Both the position numbers and the translations under genes were made by a program. From Patescibacteria group bacterium (lineage in GTDB: Bacteria > Patescibacteriota > Patescibacteriia > SBBC01 > CAIJZX01): a DNA stretch of 50,248 nt. Each line of letters opens with the position of its first letter. The first letter of the stretch is position 1. The DNA lies in contig JBBTRH010000009.1 in assembly GCA_038065275.1 (NCBI GenBank), positions 1 to 50,248 of the forward strand. Reading direction: 5' to 3'. The notes under the pieces were generated by a model. The model worked only from the letters and a program-made list of their open reading frames with translations. It was not told the DNA's origin and did not search any database. Positions 4,676 through 37,478 of this stretch are shown piece by piece.

Positions 4676-4747
4676 GCGCACCTAGCTCAATGGTAGAGCT
4701 CTCGTCTTATACACGAGTGGTTCCAGGTTCGAGTCCTGGGGTGCGCA
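4676..4747 (+). tRNA. tRNA-Ile (anticodon TAT)
   Basis: Hand-folded cloverleaf: gcgcacc/ggtgcgc acceptor, gctc-aatggta-gagc D arm, ctcgt-cTTATac-acgag anticodon arm, ccagg-ttcgagt-cctgg T arm. No encoded CCA. Flanked by a 9-bp complementary leader/trailer (ggctcttag / ctaagagcc). Confidence 0.85.
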
Positions 4748-4756
4748 CTAAGAGCC

Positions 4757-4850
4757 TAGGCGGCTGTCTTACTTGCCCCGCACCCGAAGCAAAGCGGAGT
4801 GGCGCGGGGTACACGGCCGGTCCATGGTTCGAATCCATGTCCGCCCACCA
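4757..4850 (+). pseudogene. tRNA-like 3' fragment (T arm, acceptor 3' strand, CCA) preceded by a CTTG-CCCCGCAC...GCGCGGGG hairpin
   Basis: A good T arm (catgg-ttcgaat-ccatg) is followed by tccgccc-acca. No matching 5' acceptor strand or D arm could be folded. The hairpin at 4772-4809 belongs to the CCCCGCAC family seen in other broken tRNAs. Confidence 0.4.
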
Positions 4851-8597: not shown

Positions 8598-8664
8598 AAG
8601 CAAGTTTCCGGCGAACGATAGTTAAACGGACCGATGGTGATTCGGCTGGGCGTTTTTTTTGGTG
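8598..8664 (+). repeat. Right copy of the 67-nt direct repeat
   Basis: aagcaagtttccggcgaacgatagttaaacggaccgatggtgattcggctgggcgttttttttggtg. The final TGGTG is the CCA end of the minus-strand tRNA-like gene at 8660. Confidence 0.8.
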
Positions 8665-8786
8665 GGCGACAGAGTCCCGCCGTATGGCGGGTTAACCTTC
8701 ACAATACCTGCCCCATATATGTCGAGCGCAACGAGACCTATACGGGATCAATGTGGCGCTCAAACCCGACTGAGCTCATATCCCGC
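8660..8786 (-). pseudogene. Aberrant tRNA-Val-like gene
   Basis: On the minus strand: gcgggatatgagctcagtcgggtttgagcgccacattgat...tgtgaaggttaa-cccgccatacggcggg-actctgtcgcccacca. The D arm and anticodon stem resemble the adjacent tRNA-Val. About 40 nt are inserted in the anticodon loop. The T arm is replaced by a 6-bp tetraloop hairpin. The acceptor strands are not complementary. Confidence 0.5.
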
Positions 8787-8838
8787 TGGTGGGCGACAGA
8801 GGAATCGAACCTCTGACCTCCACAATGTCAATGTGACG
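8787..8838 (-). pseudogene. tRNA-Val 3' fragment (anticodon arm to CCA)
   Basis: cgtcacattgacattgtggaggtcagaggttcgattcctctgtcgcccacca. There is no D arm or 5' acceptor strand; unrelated sequence takes their place. Confidence 0.7.
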
Positions 8839-8871
8839 CCCCGCCCGCTTCGCCTGCGAAAGAAAATCTCT

Positions 8872-12155: not shown

Positions 12156-12473
12156 ATGTCCGAGAACAAACAACAACTCACCGACTTGAAGCCCGGCCAG
12201 ATCGTCCGCGTCCACCAAGCGATCAAAGAAGGCGACAAGACGCGGACCCAGATCTTCGAAGGTTTGGTGATCGCCCTCAAAGGCGGACATGGCGTCAGCG
12301 GAACAGTCACCGTCCGGAAAGTTTCCGACGGAATCGCGGTCGAACGGATCTTCCCGCGCCACTCGCCGTTGTTTTCGAAGGTTGACGTGGTTCGCACCCT
12401 GAGCGTCCGCCGCGCCAAGCTCTACCACTTGCGCCAGCCAAACGCTCGCCAGCCGCGGGAAAAAAAGACCTAA
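12156..12473 (+). CDS. rplS: 50S ribosomal protein L19
   Basis: 105 aa. GQIVRVHQAIKEGDKTRTQIFEGLVIALKGG...RKVSDGIAVERIFPRHSP is the classic L19 signature. Confidence 0.95.
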   Translation: MSENKQQLTDLKPGQIVRVHQAIKEGDKTRTQIFEGLVIALKGGHGVSGTVTVRKVSDGIAVERIFPRHSPLFSKVDVVRTLSVRRAKLYHLRQPNARQPREKKT

Positions 12474-12520
12474 CACAATTTTCATCGGGCAAGCGCGTCA
12501 AAACTTTGCCAGCAACTGGT

Positions 12521-12607
12521 GCGGCCGTGGCGGAACTGGTATACGCGCTAGCTTGAGGGGCTAGTGGTCGCAAGACCGTGGAGGTTCGAGTCCTCTCGGC
12601 CGCACCA
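12521..12607 (+). tRNA. tRNA-Leu (anticodon GAG)
   Basis: gcggccg tg gcg-gaactggtata-cgc g ctagc-ttGAGgg-gctag, long variable arm tggtcgcaagaccgt, ggagg-ttcgagt-cctct cggccgc ACCA. The leader caactggt pairs with accagttg (discriminator, CCA and trailer). Confidence 0.9.
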
Positions 12608-12962
12608 GTTGTTTAGAAAGTGCTAGCTTGCCTGCCCGCCGTAGCTCCGAGCGAAGGCGGAAGGGGCTAGTGGTCGCAAGACCGTGGAGGTTCGAGTCCT
12701 CTCGGCCGCACCAGTTGTTTAGAAAGTGCTAGCTTGCCTGCCCGCCAAAGCTCACCAGAGCGCTAGCGAAGGAGAGCGTCGGCGGGAGGGGCTAGTGGTC
12801 GCAAGACCGTGGAGGTTCAAATCCTCTCGTCCGCACCATTTGCGCATGTCATCGCATGACTGGTCGAGTCCTCTCGTCCGCACCAGCTGTTTAGAAAGCG
12901 CTAGCTTGCCTGTCCGCCGTAGCTCCGAGCGAAGGCGGAAGGGGCTAGTGGTCGCAAGACCT
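12608..12962 (+). repeat. Tandem array of about 3.5 tRNA-Leu 3' fragments, each with a hairpin inserted in the anticodon loop
   Basis: The unit is gttgtttagaaagtG-CTAGC-TTG-[cctgcccgcc...ggcgg(g)a]-(A)GGG-GCTAG-variable arm-T arm-acceptor-CCA. Unit ends fall at 12713, 12838 and 12885, and the last copy is truncated at about 12962. None of the copies has a D arm or 5' acceptor strand. Confidence 0.8.
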
Positions 12963-12984
12963 TGTCCCGCCACGGCGGGATCGT

Positions 12985-13016
12985 CCGCACAAACCGTGAG
13001 GTGCGGTTGTGTTTTT
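12985..13016 (+). terminator. Intrinsic terminator closing the tRNA-Leu region
   Basis: ccgcac-aaaccgtgag-gtgcgg followed by ttgtgttttt. Confidence 0.6.
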
Positions 13017-13042
13017 CGTCCATGGTCTGCTACGATAGCGGT

Positions 13043-13984: not shown

Positions 13985-13987
13985 TTA

Positions 13988-14022
13988 CGGGCCGTTAGTT
14001 CGGCGGTAGAACACCTCATTTG
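13988..14022 (+). pseudogene. tRNA-Ala-like 5' half, broken after TTTG of the anticodon loop (outermost copy)
   Basis: gggccgt ta gttc-ggcggta-gaac a cctca tttg, then tcccgcac... The break position matches the next copy. Confidence 0.55.
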
Positions 14023-14037
14023 TCCCGCACTTTTGGA

Positions 14038-14215
14038 GGGCTGTTAGCCCCGATGTCCGGCGAAGCCGGAATCGGGATCCCGACCCGACATTCTGATGGA
14101 GGCGTCGGGACTCCCGCCTTCGTCCCGACCGCACAAGTGCGTCGGGACTACGGCGGGCAGGCTCGCCCGCCAAAGACTTGTTCGGCGGCAGACAGTTGGT
14201 AGAGCGTCCGGTTTG
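14038..14215 (+). pseudogene. tRNA-Ala(TGC) 5' half with two hairpin inserts in the D arm, broken after TTTG
   Basis: gggctgt ta gc[63-nt cccgat...gtcgggac, 14049-14111]tc[ccgcc...ggcaggc plus a second hairpin, 14114-~14193]agttggta gagc g tccgg tttg | tcccgatt... Confidence 0.7.
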
Positions 14216-14230
14216 TCCCGATTCCTAGAA

Positions 14231-14476
14231 ATGTTTTTCCTCTACATTCTACAGTCGAAAACAGACGGATCATATTACATAGGTTCTTGTGAAAATATTA
14301 CAACGAGGTTACTGTTGCATAATCAGGGAAAGGTGCGATCGACAAAACGCGGATCACCCTGGATGCTGGTATATCAAGAAAGTTTCACCACACGATCAGA
14401 GGCATATGCAAGAGAACAACAAATAAAATCATGGAAAAAGAGAGCGGCCATCGAAAAACTCATTAAACATTTCTAG
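14231..14476 (+). CDS. GIY-YIG nuclease domain protein (81 aa)
   Basis: MFFLYILQSKTDGSYYIGSCENITTRLLLHNQGKVRSTKRG...WMLVYQESFTTRSEAYAREQQIKSWKKRAAIEKL has the GIY...YIG, R and E motifs of small stand-alone GIY-YIG proteins. It is AT-rich compared with its flanks and is bracketed by the 16-bp inverted repeat attcctagaaatgttt / aaacatttctaggaat. Confidence 0.85.
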   Translation: MFFLYILQSKTDGSYYIGSCENITTRLLLHNQGKVRSTKRGSPWMLVYQESFTTRSEAYAREQQIKSWKKRAAIEKLIKHF

Positions 14477-14504
14477 GAATCGTGGATCCTCGATTGCGCC
14501 TGGT

Positions 14505-14580
14505 GGGCCGTTAGCTCAGCTGGTAGAGCGTCCGGTTTGCATCCGGGAGGTCGCCGGTTCGAATCCGGCACGGTCCACCA
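14505..14580 (+). tRNA. tRNA-Ala (anticodon TGC)
   Basis: gggccgt ta gctc-agctggta-gagc g tccgg-ttTGCat-ccggg aggtc gccgg-ttcgaat-ccggc acggtcc ACCA. The G3:U70 identity pair is present. The leader gcgcctggt pairs with accaggcgc. Confidence 0.92.
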
Positions 14581-14593
14581 GGCGCAATCGGGA

Positions 14594-14717
14594 CATCCGG
14601 AAGGTCAGGAGTTTCTGGCGGAGCCGGACCAGGCTCCGCCTGGCGAGCCCGGTAGGGTCCACCCGAATTGTCGGGACATCCGGAAGGTCAGCGGTTCAAT
14701 TCCGCCACGGTCCACCA
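14594..14717 (+). pseudogene. Two successive tRNA-Ala 3' remnants, each starting at CAT of the anticodon loop
   Basis: ...aatcggga|c-at-ccgga-aggtc-agg... (14594-~14665, degenerate). ...attgtcggga|c-at-ccgga aggtc agcgg-ttcaatt-ccgcc acggtcc ACCA (14677-14717). Confidence 0.7.
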
Positions 14718-14721
14718 AAAC

Positions 14722-15071
14722 TGGTGCTGGGTTTTTGCCGAAAACCTGCAACTCGCTACTTAACCCCGCACTATGCCTCGTTACACTCGGCAAATGCGGG
14801 GCAAGGAGGCAGTATCCGTCGCTCACCTGGTGACCCGAGGAGGACTCGAACCTCCAACCCGCTGCTTAAGAGGCAGCTACTCTACCAATTGAGCTATCGG
14901 GCCAGGTGAGCGACGGATTAGATGATCGTCAGCTGCTCCTTGCCCCGCACCGGAGTGGAACTACTGGTGCGGGGTACCAATTGAGTCCCGACGCCTCCAT
15001 CGCGATGTCGGGTCGGGATCCCGATTCCCGAAGTTCGCCGAGCGAATTCGGGACATCGGGGCTAGCGGGCC
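14722..15071 (-). pseudogene. Disrupted outer tRNA-Lys-like gene enclosing the intact tRNA-Lys
   Basis: Minus strand: ggcccgc ta gc[76-nt insert 14985-15060]tc aattggta [ccccgcacc...ggtgcggggcaag 14939-14974] gagc a gctg(a) ... intact tRNA cassette ... (g)cctc[cttgccccgc...gcgggg]ttaag tagcg agtt gcagg ... No proper T arm or 3' acceptor. Confidence 0.55.
14828..14903 (-). tRNA. tRNA-Lys (anticodon CTT)
   Basis: ggcccga ta gctc-aattggta-gagt a gctgc-ctCTTaa-gcagc gggtt ggagg-ttcgagt-cctcc tcgggtc ACCA. Bracketed by 12-bp complementary flanks (14816-14827 / 14905-14916). Confidence 0.9.
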
Positions 15072-16221: not shown

Positions 16222-16284
16222 ATTGGCAGACTAGGTTAATAATCATGCCCTGTCAATAGGTTTCGTAAGTGTAGCAGGGCTCGA

Positions 16285-16362
16285 ATGGTTCGACAAGCTC
16301 ACCGCGTCGCCTGCAACCCGCTGCTTAAGAGGCAGCTGCTCTACCAATTGAGCTATCGGGCC
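16285..16362 (-). pseudogene. tRNA-Lys(CTT)-like gene with an insertion in the T loop and no 3' acceptor strand
   Basis: ggcccga ta gctc aattggta gagc a gctgc ctCTTaa gcagc gggtt gcagg [cgacgcggtgagcttgtcgaacca]ttcgagc cctgc, followed by non-complementary sequence. Confidence 0.6.
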
Positions 16363-16365
16363 TTA

Positions 16366-16404
16366 GTGCCTGGGATCAGAATCGAACTGATGACGCCAGC
16401 CTCT
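16366..16404 (-). pseudogene. tRNA-Phe 3' remnant (anticodon stem 3' strand to acceptor)
   Basis: Plus strand gtgcctgggatcagaatcgaactgatgacgccagcctct matches the 3' part of the intact tRNA-Phe, then diverges in the anticodon loop. Confidence 0.7.
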
Positions 16405-16530
16405 TTTTACCCAGCACCGGACCTCGAGCTTGCCGAGAGGGATTGGTGCTGTGGCAGGGCGGGATTCATCCCGCCCAATTCCCTGGTGCCTGGAGTCAGA
16501 ACCCCGCACCAGCCGTGTTCATCTCGCCGG

Positions 16531-16602
16531 TGCCTGGGATCAGAATCGAACTGATGACGCCAGCCTCTTCAGGGCTGCGCTCTACCACTGAGCTACCCAG
16601 GC
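16531..16602 (-). tRNA. tRNA-Phe (anticodon GAA)
   Basis: gcctggg ta gctc-agtggta-gagc g cagcc-ctGAAga-ggctg gcgtc atcag-ttcgatt-ctgat cccaggc A. The acceptor helix is extended by the flanking ccggt/accgg. Confidence 0.9.
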
Positions 16603-16659
16603 ACCGGGAAGACGAACCTATTATCGTGTATTGTAAAGCAGTAAATAATTAACTCTCAA

Positions 16660-16790
16660 ACGGCTGGTACGGGGCAAGTCGAACCGCTAGTTTACCCCGA
16701 GCCGTGTCGAGGGGCCAGCCTCTTTCCGGCGAAGCCGGATCCGGCCATCTGGCCGGACAGGGCTGCGCTCTACCACTGAGCTACCCAGGC
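16660..16790 (-). pseudogene. tRNA-Phe copy with a 33-nt hairpin between G34 and A35 and a degenerate 3' part
   Basis: gcctggg ta gctc agtggta gagc g cagcc ctg[tccggccagatggccggatccggcttcgccgga, 16725-16757]aaga ggctg, followed by hairpin repeats where the T arm should be. Confidence 0.65.
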
Positions 16791-16812
16791 AAGAAACCAG
16801 GGAACTGCACGG

Positions 16813-16938
16813 GACTCTACCACTGCCAGCCCGCCGTAGCGTCAGTGACGGCGGGAGTCCCGACGCCTCCATTGGAATGTCGGGTCGGGATCCCGATTCC
16901 CGATCGCTAGGCGCATCGGGAATCGGGGCTACCCAGGC
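16813..16938 (-). pseudogene. tRNA-Phe 5' fragment with two D-arm hairpin inserts
   Basis: gcctggg ta gc[71-nt cccgatt...gtcgggac, 16857-16927]tc[ccgccgtcactgacgctacggcgggctggc]agtggta gagt... The insert positions match those in the Ala fragment at 14038. Confidence 0.65.
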
Positions 16939-17042
16939 AAGATTCCTTGAAGCTATCCCACGATATAGCAATCAAAGTTTTTTTTCAAGGCCACCGAATG
17001 AGGCGTCCATGATGGACGCCTCACAACCTCGACTTGAACAAT

Positions 17043-37329: not shown

Positions 37330-37350
37330 TAGGTGTAAACAAGAATAATA

Positions 37351-37478
37351 AGCTCGTCCTAAGGGCGAGCGTAGGGTTCGCCAGGTCACTCGACCTGGTG
37401 TCCGGCCTACTGACCGGACGATTCATGGTGGGGGTAGAGGCGAAGGCAGGCGGGGCAAGTCCTGCCCACAGGGTACCA
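37351..37478 (+). pseudogene. tRNA-Arg(CCT)-like 3' remnant with hairpin inserts
   Basis: agctc-gtCCTaa-gggcg agcgt aggg-ttcg[ccaggtcactcgacctgg][tgtccggcctactgaccggacg]attc... ends ...gggtacca. Confidence 0.35.

Follow-up and report, generated by a model that had tools for sequence, protein, structure and literature searches.

The 50,248-nt stretch of a Patescibacteria group bacterium analysed here (contig JBBTRH010000009.1; called the window throughout) carries a gene for tRNA-Leu(GAG) downstream of the gene for ribosomal protein L19 (rplS, 12156-12473), and behind this tRNA gene lies an array of partial tRNA-Leu copies, at 12608-12991. The initial annotation of the region had the start of the array right, but placed its end at 12962 instead of 12991. 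The array consists of three full units and one short unit (Table 1). A full unit is made of a 14-nt trailer (S), tRNA positions 26-34 (a), a GC hairpin (H) inserted between G34 and A35, and tRNA positions 35-76 with CCA (P). The insertion of the hairpin at exactly this site, as first described, was confirmed from the sequence of units 1, 2 and 4. The description of the repeats given at that time also holds for the full units, but not for the short third unit, which is broken in the T loop and has a different spacer. Likewise, of the hairpin lengths given before (31-49 nt), the lower value is that of H1, but H2 has 50 nt and not 49.

The hairpins of the full units start with CCTG(C/T)CCGCC and end with GGCGG(A/G), and they fold somewhat better than shuffled sequences. 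Segment a is identical to the live tRNA at 9/9 positions; its core TAGCTTG, together with CYTG, is also found downstream of tRNA-Leu in two relatives (L001 and L132, see below). The copies of the 3' portion are separated by 54 nt (S, a and H1), 73 nt (S, a and H2) or 25 nt, and the joint between S' and a shows a GC microhomology with tRNA positions 24-25. The repeats are significant, with a Tandem Repeats Finder score of 382 and, in a BLAST search of the tRNA against the window, an E value of 2.5e-25 for P1. All of them are 3' portions only, lacking the D arm and the 5' acceptor strand, as previously proposed; in agreement, BLAST found no further copy of tRNA-Leu positions 1-25, and thus no matching 5' half, upstream of the gene or elsewhere in the window. 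Neither ARAGORN nor Rfam called a tRNA in any unit, even at E <= 1, the only call being that at 12521-12607; besides the live tRNA, Rfam returned at E <= 1 only a spurious mir-73 match far under threshold. The units are not tRNAs, and they do not form a set of genes.

The copies differ in type. P0 (the 3' part of the live gene) and P1 are of the CGGCCGC type, and P2, f3 and P4, on the right side of the array, are of the CGTCCGC type found in relatives. P2 is identical to the live tRNA-Leu of the window at 49/52 positions. Because it matches the tRNA-Leu of a relative with a clean locus (L136) at 51/52 positions, the right-hand copies are of the older type that was inherited vertically, and P0 and P1 are derived. 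In the last copy, P4, the CCA reads CA, and a hairpin stands in for the T arm (TCCCGCC-AC-GGCGGGA, 12965-12980), just as had been noticed. The same had been said of a tRNA-Val-like pseudogene at 8660-8786, where we found CCCGCCATACGGCGGG in place of the T arm; the scar in P4 is of the same kind. The weak palindrome of the short unit's spacer (12839-12863) was also considered as a hairpin, and was rejected since it folded no better than shuffles.

The terminator-like hairpin behind the array is kept in L132 and in an independent assembly of the locus (L011), and it marks where the tRNA-Leu transcription unit originally ended. Because the array sits between the live tRNA and this terminator, it probably forms a transcribed trailer that is degraded, and is itself probably inert.

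Table 1. Coordinates of the live tRNA-Leu(GAG), the array behind it and the flanking elements
Feature	Position	Strand	Description
Leader of live tRNA-Leu	12486-12520	+	CAACTGGT, complementary to trailer ACCAGTTG
Live tRNA-Leu(GAG)	12521-12607	+	ARAGORN; Rfam RF00005, 52.8 bits; acceptor GCGGCCG/CGGCCGC
Unit 1	12608-12713	+	106 nt: S, a, H1 (31 nt), P1
S, 14-nt trailer GTTGTTTAGAAAGT	12608-12621	+	Repeated at 12714-12727 and, with 2 changes, at 12886-12899
a, GCTAGCTTG	12622-12630	+	tRNA 26-34 (G26, anticodon stem 5' strand, U32 U33 G34); copies at 12728-12736 and 12900-12908
H1	12631-12661	+	31-nt hairpin CCTG-CCCGCC..GGCGGA at G34/A35; DNA fold -8.0 kcal/mol
P1, displaced 3' portion (35-76 + CCA)	12662-12713	+	BLAST 52/52 to live gene
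Unit 2	12714-12838	+	125 nt: S and a as in unit 1, H2 (50 nt), P2 with 3 differences
H2	12737-12786	+	50-nt nested hairpin at the same G34/A35 site
P2, older-type 3' portion	12787-12838	+	T loop TTCAAAT, acceptor CGTCCGC; 51/52 identical to live tRNA-Leu of L136
Unit 3, short	12839-12885	+	47 nt: 25-nt spacer and last 22 nt of tRNA, T loop onward
Spacer of short unit	12839-12863	+	25 nt, weak palindrome GTCAT-CGC-ATGAC
f3, last 22 nt of tRNA-Leu, broken in T loop	12864-12885	+	BLAST 21/22
Unit 4	12886-12991	+	106 nt: S' (2 differences), a, H4 (H1 with 1 difference), P4
S', a and H4 of oldest unit	12886-12939	+	H4 is H1 with C to T at 12913; fold z = -4.1
P4, oldest 3' portion	12940-12991	+	Palindrome TCCCGCC-AC-GGCGGGA (12965-12980) replaces T stem-loop; 3' end CGTCCGCACA
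Terminator-like hairpin and T run	12992-13018	+	Sole terminator-like site downstream of tRNA-Leu on + strand

Variation of the array between groundwater populations

The public runs in which the region is found are metagenomes of groundwater. In Logan contigs of four runs, which come from two studies, every unique junction of the array was reproduced without a mismatch, and in run X3 all unique nodes had the same depth as the flanks (4.3-5.8), which is what four units in one genome would give. This exact matching and the depth in X3 speak against a collapsed or expanded assembly, which had been raised with the initial annotation. A comparison of unit number between strains, also suggested there, showed that it differs among populations (L011, X1, X2, X4 and X5). 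In L011, an independent ENA assembly with an identical L19, the same locus lacks unit 1 and keeps three units, and words specific to H1 are absent. In X1 and X4, as judged from word depths at high stringency, H1-specific words were absent and H2 was at full depth, unit 1 being missing. H2, in turn, was absent from X2 and X5. In the major haplotype of X2, the live tRNA with S, a and H1 is joined straight to P4, leaving one unit.

A minor X2 contig extends leftwards from P2 (with a loose end before 12795) into what look like the D and anticodon arms of a tRNA-Leu(GAG) whose anticodon stem differs from that of the window. As P2 joins an apparently intact tRNA-Leu(GAG) 5' part in this haplotype, it seems to be still part of a live gene there. 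Contigs of X5 and X6 (12654-12704) have an H1-type hairpin followed by an intact P, and the shortest haplotypes still hold at least one unit. We conclude that the copy-number variation is real, and that an assembly artefact is unlikely.

Broken tRNA genes and GIY-YIG nucleases in related genomes

As judged by L19, the closest genome relatives are metagenome-assembled genomes (MAGs) of Patescibacteria and Candidatus Kerfeldbacteria (76%, 66% and 62% identity), and the gene order rplS, then tRNA-Leu, -Val, -Ala, -Phe and -Lys is kept among relatives. In L136, the tRNA-Leu gene is clean and no array is present. A displaced 21-nt 3' fragment lies about 130 nt behind tRNA-Leu in L003, and a duplicated 5' fragment lies ahead of it in L133. 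In L001, TAGCTTGCCT is found behind tRNA-Leu at the end of the contig, where the sequence reads ..ATAGCTTGCCT, the start of a-H. In L002, the live tRNA-Leu is followed by an open reading frame (ORF) of 89 amino acids with a GIY-YIG domain (Pfam PF01541, E = 2.6e-16), and a palindrome separates this ORF from a displaced T-loop fragment, AGTCCCCTCGTCCGCACCA. T-loop fragments like f3 of the array are present in both L003 (4546-4566) and L002 (5740-5758).

The closest relative, L132, with an L19 that is 97% identical, has a nested locus of the form A5'[B5'[C]B3']A3', in which we found three different tRNA-Leu(GAG) sequences. The upstream TTTTCATCGG, shared with the window, leads into the 5' part of an old gene A (GCGGACG..) that is broken by hairpin inserts; the 5' part of gene B (GCGCGGG..), the live gene C (GGGCGGG..), the 3' part of B and the 3' part of A follow. 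The last of these is composed of TAGCTTG, a hairpin and AGGGGCTGGTGGTCGCAAGACC-TTGTCCCGCCACGGCGGGA-TCGTCCGCACA, and then continues into downstream sequence as in the window. Since the T-arm scar and the downstream sequence are common to both, the 3' part of A in L132 is the orthologue of unit 4. The three Leu genes differ strongly, suggesting that they are imports and not local copies. The anticodon loop of A holds, at G34/A35, a hairpin of another family, TCCCGCACC..GGTGCGGGA, which is also found in the window at 14943. The presence of a hairpin of another family at the same G34/A35 site argues for site-specific insertion of hairpin modules. A target-site duplication was tried as a mark of insertion and discarded: no flanking duplication is seen at G34/A35 in the array, and TA is duplicated at one joint of L132 only, the other joints having none.

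The window, L132 and L001 share the core TAGCTTG, but each has a different trailer before it. The window and L132 diverge after the first two bases of gene A, that is, with a break at position 3. Because L132 keeps the 5' halves of the orthologous locus, it seems that the 5' relics were deleted or replaced in the lineage of the window. Thus, 5' halves immediately upstream, which were at first reported as missing, are indeed missing from the window but exist at the orthologous L132 locus. The argument then made, that simple repeated insertion could not explain the array, is countered by this nested locus as well as by the 3'-only footprints found in other relatives.

The L002 nuclease has its three closest homologues, with 54-61% identity, at a tRNA-Lys (L151), a tRNA-Gly (L152) and a tRNA-Ser gene (L153). 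In 3/3 cases the order is live tRNA, short spacer, nuclease ORF, hairpin, and displaced 3' fragment of the same tRNA. Since elements of the L002 type leave a 3'-only footprint, a 5' half would not be expected of them. In L151, the hairpin that separates the GIY-YIG ORF from the displaced tRNA-Lys fragment is homologous to H2 (37/46 positions identical, a match equalled by 0/2000 shuffles), and the two have the same nested stem architecture. Moreover, the right end of H1, AGCGAAGGCGG, is identical to the end of the L153 GIY-YIG element. The window also has a GIY-YIG gene for a protein of 81 amino acids, at 14231-14476 (Pfam, E = 9e-17), which belongs to a second subfamily distinct from the L002 type. 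Five contexts of the second subfamily were examined (within L139-L150, AT-rich Patescibacteria with unrelated neighbours). In 5/5, the ORF is located 25-45 nt upstream of a live tRNA-Ala, and the pair of ORF and tRNA-Ala is nested in an older tRNA-Ala that is broken at G35/C36, with the termini TCCCGA..TCGGGA conserved. Exactly the same arrangement of ORF and nested tRNA-Ala is seen in the window at 14197-14717. All of the break points seen fall in loops of the cloverleaf, either the anticodon, the T or the D loop. We conclude that in this phylum small GIY-YIG genes are regularly tied to tRNA genes that were broken and replaced.

The terminus CCTGCCCGCC has five exact occurrences, solely in tRNA-fragment regions, and with no more than one mismatch 18 matches were observed as compared to 4.6 expected. 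A metagenome scan with the 16-mer AGCTTGCCTGYCCGCC, a short pattern, returned at least 120 stretches, and none of the loci fetched from these had an adjacent Leu-like 3' part or trailer. A single viral match to the core of H2 lies in a GC-rich protein-coding region of a phage, with no tRNA, and was dismissed as a chance match.

Several other arrangements of this kind were noted. The nested tRNA-Ala(TGC) of the window extends over 13985-14717. Its old 5' half ends in ..TCCGGTTTG, the GIY-YIG gene is framed by the inverted repeats TCCCGATTCCTAGAAATG and CATTTCTAGGAATCGTGGA, and the live tRNA-Ala (14505-14580) is framed by TCCTCGATTGCGCCTGGT and ACCAGGCGCAATCGGGA and followed by two displaced 3' halves. 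An identical 84-amino acid nuclease (P0070) is found in two different tRNA-Ala backgrounds, L145 and L146, and in L142 (1501-2151) two GIY-YIG ORFs of 83 amino acids lie in tandem behind tRNA-Ile, at the end of the contig. In L002 (6757-7160), a tRNA-Lys(CTT) is followed by two units of 186 nt, each with a 127-nt spacer and the tRNA from the D stem onwards. This array parallels the Leu array; the genome was assembled as a contig of 822 kb, and ARAGORN calls the second copy a tRNA. A tRNA-Ile with the anticodon TAT occupies the same position in the window (4676-4748), L003, L133 and L136; behind the copy in the window lies a hairpin pairing with its acceptor 3' strand (4739-4785).

Recurring hairpin modules were likewise found, almost confined to regions of tRNA debris. 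One, GTCCCGAC-CGCACAAGTGC-GTCGGGAC, has three identical or near-identical copies (13406, 14122 and 37727), and another, CCCCGCACC..GGTGCGGGG, is present at 14943, 15875 and 24478 and belongs to the family that fills the old Leu anticodon loop in L132. The loops of several modules contain GCGAAG(C/G), which we take to resemble a motif that forms very stable DNA mini-hairpins.

Origin of the array

On balance, we think that the array is probably a stack of inactivated remnants of earlier versions of tRNA-Leu(GAG), left by GIY-YIG-linked replacement elements and ORF-less hairpin modules and reshaped by recombination. This interpretation builds on the anatomy of the array, its polymorphism in populations, the orthology of unit 4 with the L132 fragment, the homology of H2 to the end of a GIY-YIG element and the association of the small nucleases with broken tRNA genes. 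In this Kerfeldbacteria-like lineage, the cloverleaf loops of tRNA genes would have been hit repeatedly by elements linked to GIY-YIG nucleases of about 80-90 amino acids. Such elements would import either a whole replacement tRNA gene, giving the nested loci, or a 3' part with its trailer, giving the 3'-only footprints, and in either case the incoming element would displace the old 3' part downstream.

At the Leu locus, a gene A (acceptor GCGGACG/CGTCCGC, 3' part P4) may first have been split in the anticodon stem by an incoming tRNA-Leu unit with its S trailer (S'). Gene A would also have gained, at G34/A35, a hairpin module corresponding to the ORF-less terminal hairpin of a GIY-YIG element. 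Unequal homologous recombination between repeats of 52-95 nt (P, or P with S and a) would then have multiplied and deleted the segment [P-S-a-H]. Indeed, with one S/a joint, and with two differences between S and S' and one between H1 and H4, the further full units are most simply explained by unequal recombination between P copies. The L011 form could be derived from that of the window via the 95-nt repeat of P, S and a, and the one-unit X2 form via H1/H4. The short unit (f3) possibly goes back to a separate 3' replacement in the T loop, as in L002, L003 and L151. Deletion or replacement would have removed the 5' relics, leaving a break at position 3 of gene A, and the dead copies would have gone on gaining hairpins and deletions, as in the T arm of P4. 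It also seems possible that the displaced 3' portions once served as the downstream homology arm for homing of the element. That homing was driven by the nuclease, as well as the order of events and the recombination steps, is what we infer.

Several points weigh against this interpretation. No ORF with a GIY-YIG match is found by tblastn inside 12608-12991, and no full-length element was found at G34/A35 of any tRNA-Leu. A simple model made up of 3' part, ORF and hairpin does not account for the 9-nt segment a, which needs either a separate insertion in the anticodon stem or a hairpin-only insertion into an already redundant copy. The GIY-YIG proteins of 80-90 amino acids are catalytic domains and nothing more, and no DNA-binding domain can be recognised in them; a catalytic domain of 80 amino acids is not obviously sequence-specific, and we may speculate that it recognises DNA structure, which would fit breaks in loops only. 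The family of small GIY-YIG proteins is, in addition, very widespread, with 1354 matches. Because units 1, 2 and 4 share the S/a joint, most of the copy number may be due to plain unequal crossing-over and not to new invasions. The order of units 1 and 2, which 31-mer unitigs cannot establish, rests on depth parity at about 5x coverage. Finally, the pairing of leader and trailer at tRNA-Leu (see below) is no evidence for the terminal inverted repeats of a mobile cassette, since clean tRNA genes have this pairing too.

A more active role of the units is conceivable, if doubtful. The segments [3' portion - trailer - a - hairpin] would then be non-autonomous members of previously undescribed tRNA-gene-replacing elements of Patescibacteria, rather than passive debris, with minimal GIY-YIG nucleases cutting the loops. 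The nucleases of about 80 amino acids would perhaps recognise extruded DNA hairpins rather than sequence, and repair would copy in a replacement tRNA, or a 3' part with the terminal hairpin, so destroying the old target. If so, the xenologous turnover of tRNA genes would be fast, with three tRNA-Leu(GAG) genes at one locus of a relative whose L19 is 97% identical. Somewhat less probable still, and in our view unlikely, is a purely local origin with no foreign tRNA and no homing, in which a microhomology-mediated tandem duplication (from about tRNA position 26 to the end of the trailer) was followed by unequal crossing-over and, later, by the arrival of unrelated palindromes similar to repetitive extragenic palindromic (REP) sequences or miniature inverted-repeat transposable elements. 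The single S/a joint of all full units, the near identity of S and S' (2 bases differ) and of H1 and H4 (1 base), and the GC microhomology of the S'/a joint with tRNA positions 24-25 are consistent with such an origin, as is the similar array of identical units at the L002 tRNA-Lys, and the gain and loss of units among populations is what recombination between 52-95-nt repeats should produce. However, P4 is followed by the terminator and not by S, so that the oldest unit is no simple tandem copy, and the sister locus in L132 nests three clearly different tRNA-Leu genes. In addition, H2 has a homologue in a GIY-YIG element end, and the T-loop break of the short unit resembles that of the nuclease-bearing elements of relatives.

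Integration mediated by an integrase leaves, as its textbook footprint, direct repeats of the 3' part of a tRNA that start in the anticodon or T loop. The array could accordingly be read as the attachment sites left by a tyrosine integrase, with repeated integration in the anticodon loop of tRNA-Leu and later deletion of almost the whole of the elements, and its anatomy fits this in outline, with direct repeats equal to the tRNA 3' part at 52/52 (P1), 49/52 (P2) and 21/22 (f3) positions. We nevertheless consider this very unlikely: no integrase or transposase domain was detected among the 29 larger ORFs of the window, and no integrase among the called genes of the homologous loci inspected; there is no cargo, only 25-73 nt lying between copies; the hairpin at the junctions is homologous to the end of a GIY-YIG element; and whole tRNA genes in nested loci are not an integrase product. 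An array of functional RNAs is more improbable yet. In that case the units would be co-transcribed and processed to RNAs resembling 3' tRNA halves or hairpins, with a regulatory or decoy role. Although the array is placed ahead of the only terminator-like site behind the tRNA, its hairpins fold somewhat better than shuffles and the T arms and CCA are intact in units 1 and 2, unit content varies freely among close populations and related species lack the array. The copies also decay, with the T arm of P4 lost and its CCA changed to CA, no Rfam family matches the units, there is no acceptor helix for RNase P or RNase Z, and we found no RNA run containing the region. We give equally little credence to the possibility that alleles of co-existing strains were threaded in series during assembly. 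One-unit and three-unit strains do share an aquifer, the repeats of 85-95 nt are longer than the k-mer, and unitigs do not prove which of units 1 and 2 comes first. Against this, the unique nodes in X3 are at the full single-copy depth of the flanks and not at a fraction of it, the junction of an H1-type hairpin with an intact P recurs in X5 and X6, and there is at least one unit even in the shortest haplotypes and three in L011.

We compared the array with several known systems. The SegB protein of phage T4, encoded in the tRNA gene cluster, is a free-standing GIY-YIG endonuclease. Its recognition site contains the T-psi-C stem-loop motif conserved in tRNA genes, and the enzyme drives the inheritance of its own gene together with that of neighbouring tRNA genes (PMC2330249). 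The T-loop break points of f3, L002, L003 and L151 fit a target of the SegB type. Unlike the elements described here, segB is an intergenic phage gene, and the tRNA genes are neither split nor duplicated; here the host is a bacterium, the breaks fall mostly in the anticodon loop, and partial or whole tRNA copies are duplicated.

In fungal mitochondria, GIY-YIG elements replace the 3' end of the host gene and leave the native 3' end downstream. These nuclease genes with a replacement 3' portion are, by analogy, the closest structural counterpart. Like them, L002, L151, L152 and L153 have a restored live gene, a nuclease ORF and a displaced native 3' portion, presence or absence varies among relatives, and GC-rich palindromic clusters lie alongside. 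In contrast, a tRNA gene on a bacterial chromosome is the target here, the nuclease has only about 80-90 amino acids, and in the array the ORF is gone, only the terminal hairpin is left, and several generations are stacked. The array thus has the displaced native 3' portion, the element-specific sequence and the polymorphism of presence and absence of a GIY-YIG homing element, but not the ORF between restored gene and displaced portion. The likeness to the attachment-site repeats of prophages and genomic islands, tandem island arrays among them, lies in the intact tRNA followed by 3' portions that start in the anticodon or T loop; the array differs in having no integrase, no cargo and a hairpin exactly at the break.

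Rickettsia palindromic elements, REP sequences and bacterial interspersed mosaic elements, and the GC clusters and double-hairpin elements of mitochondria are short GC-rich palindromes, present in many copies, that insert into genes, RNA genes included. The hairpins described here are similarly multi-copy palindromes of several families with a conserved terminus (CCTGCCCGCC; TCCCGA..TCGGGA). They differ in being found almost only at the loops of dead tRNA fragments, in the homology of one family to a GIY-YIG element end, and in that no RAYT or IS200-type transposase, or other transposase domain, was found among the larger ORFs of the window. Archaeal split and intron-containing tRNA genes are interrupted in or near the anticodon loop, canonically at 37/38. 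In the array, too, tRNA pieces lie apart and are interrupted in the anticodon loop, but the break is at 34/35, there is no bulge-helix-bulge, no 5' halves are there to pair, the host is a bacterium, and the pieces decay beside a complete gene.

A search of the literature on tRNA-gene insertions in candidate-phyla bacteria and on GIY-YIG/tRNA nesting returned nothing pertinent beyond SegB and the fungal mitochondrial analogues, and the element family behind the array appears to be undescribed in the literature searched. Both integrases and homing nucleases with a spare part are already known to leave, as their footprint, displaced 3' portions downstream of a restored gene. New are the bacterial chromosomal tRNA genes as targets, the minimal GIY-YIG nucleases, the ORF-less hairpin modules, and the stacked generations that vary between strains. 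If our interpretation is correct, the tRNA genes of uncultured bacteria with reduced genomes would be arenas of repeated invasion and replacement rather than stable housekeeping loci, and homing with a spare part, as known for organelle protein genes and phage tRNA clusters, would be extended to the chromosomal tRNA genes of bacteria. The interpretation would also suggest a possible function for the widespread stand-alone GIY-YIG proteins of 80 amino acids, and the stacked copies would represent a dated fossil record of tRNA replacement, readable between strains. Wrecks that are called as genes (16277-16362, 8787-8855 and the second tRNA-Lys of L002) distort tRNA counts of MAGs and the inference of genetic codes, and the repeats break assemblies, the L001 contig stopping within a unit.

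Leader-trailer pairing and other broken tRNA genes in the window

The leader of tRNA-Leu carries, farther out than the stretch complementary to the trailer, a degenerate inverted copy of the trailer and a (CAAGCGCGT, the reverse complement of ACGCGCT..TG). The whole inverted repeat (I1, leader versus trailer and a) spans 42 nt and is 74% complementary. In RNA folding, pairing of leader and trailer lengthens the acceptor helix of tRNA-Leu (z = -4.5). Leader/trailer complementarity of 8-15 bp, often including ACCA/TGGT, was noted at many tRNA genes of the window, L001, L002, L003, L132, L133 and L136, with 14 bp at the tRNA-Ala at 14505 and 15 bp at the L132 tRNA-Leu. The pairing is present also at clean tRNA genes without any relic. 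We had considered the inverted repeat as a pair of transposon ends, a view weakened by the like pairing of clean tRNA genes in relatives. It is better seen as a trait of the tRNA transcription units of the clade, and suggests an unusual precursor structure or processing route.

Further broken tRNA genes are present in the window. On the minus strand, at 16366-16940, a tRNA-Phe(GAA) is nested. The locus opens with a 5' quarter that carries hairpin inserts. Then comes a 5' half (positions 1-33), behind which two hairpins and a chimeric 3' part lie ahead of the live gene (16529-16602); downstream of the live gene are a T-arm remnant and, last, a 3' half (16366-16405). The break lies between G34 and A35, as in tRNA-Leu. 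Also on the minus strand, a Lys-like wreck with a replaced T arm (16277-16362) still scores 36.5 bits in Rfam, and a tRNA-Val called by ARAGORN (8787-8855) has a 5' part that is not tRNA. Calls of this kind will inflate the number of tRNA genes counted in such genomes. At 37690-38057, a Val-like 5' fragment has a hairpin in its D loop. Beside this fragment is a nested tRNA-Ala(CGC) (37933-38007), which is framed by TCGTCCCGCACC and GGTGCGGGACGA and flanked by an old 5' half (..TCGCATTCG) on one side and an old 3' part on the other. Lastly, a partial copy of the anticodon arm (37350-37369) is found behind tRNA-Arg(CCT).

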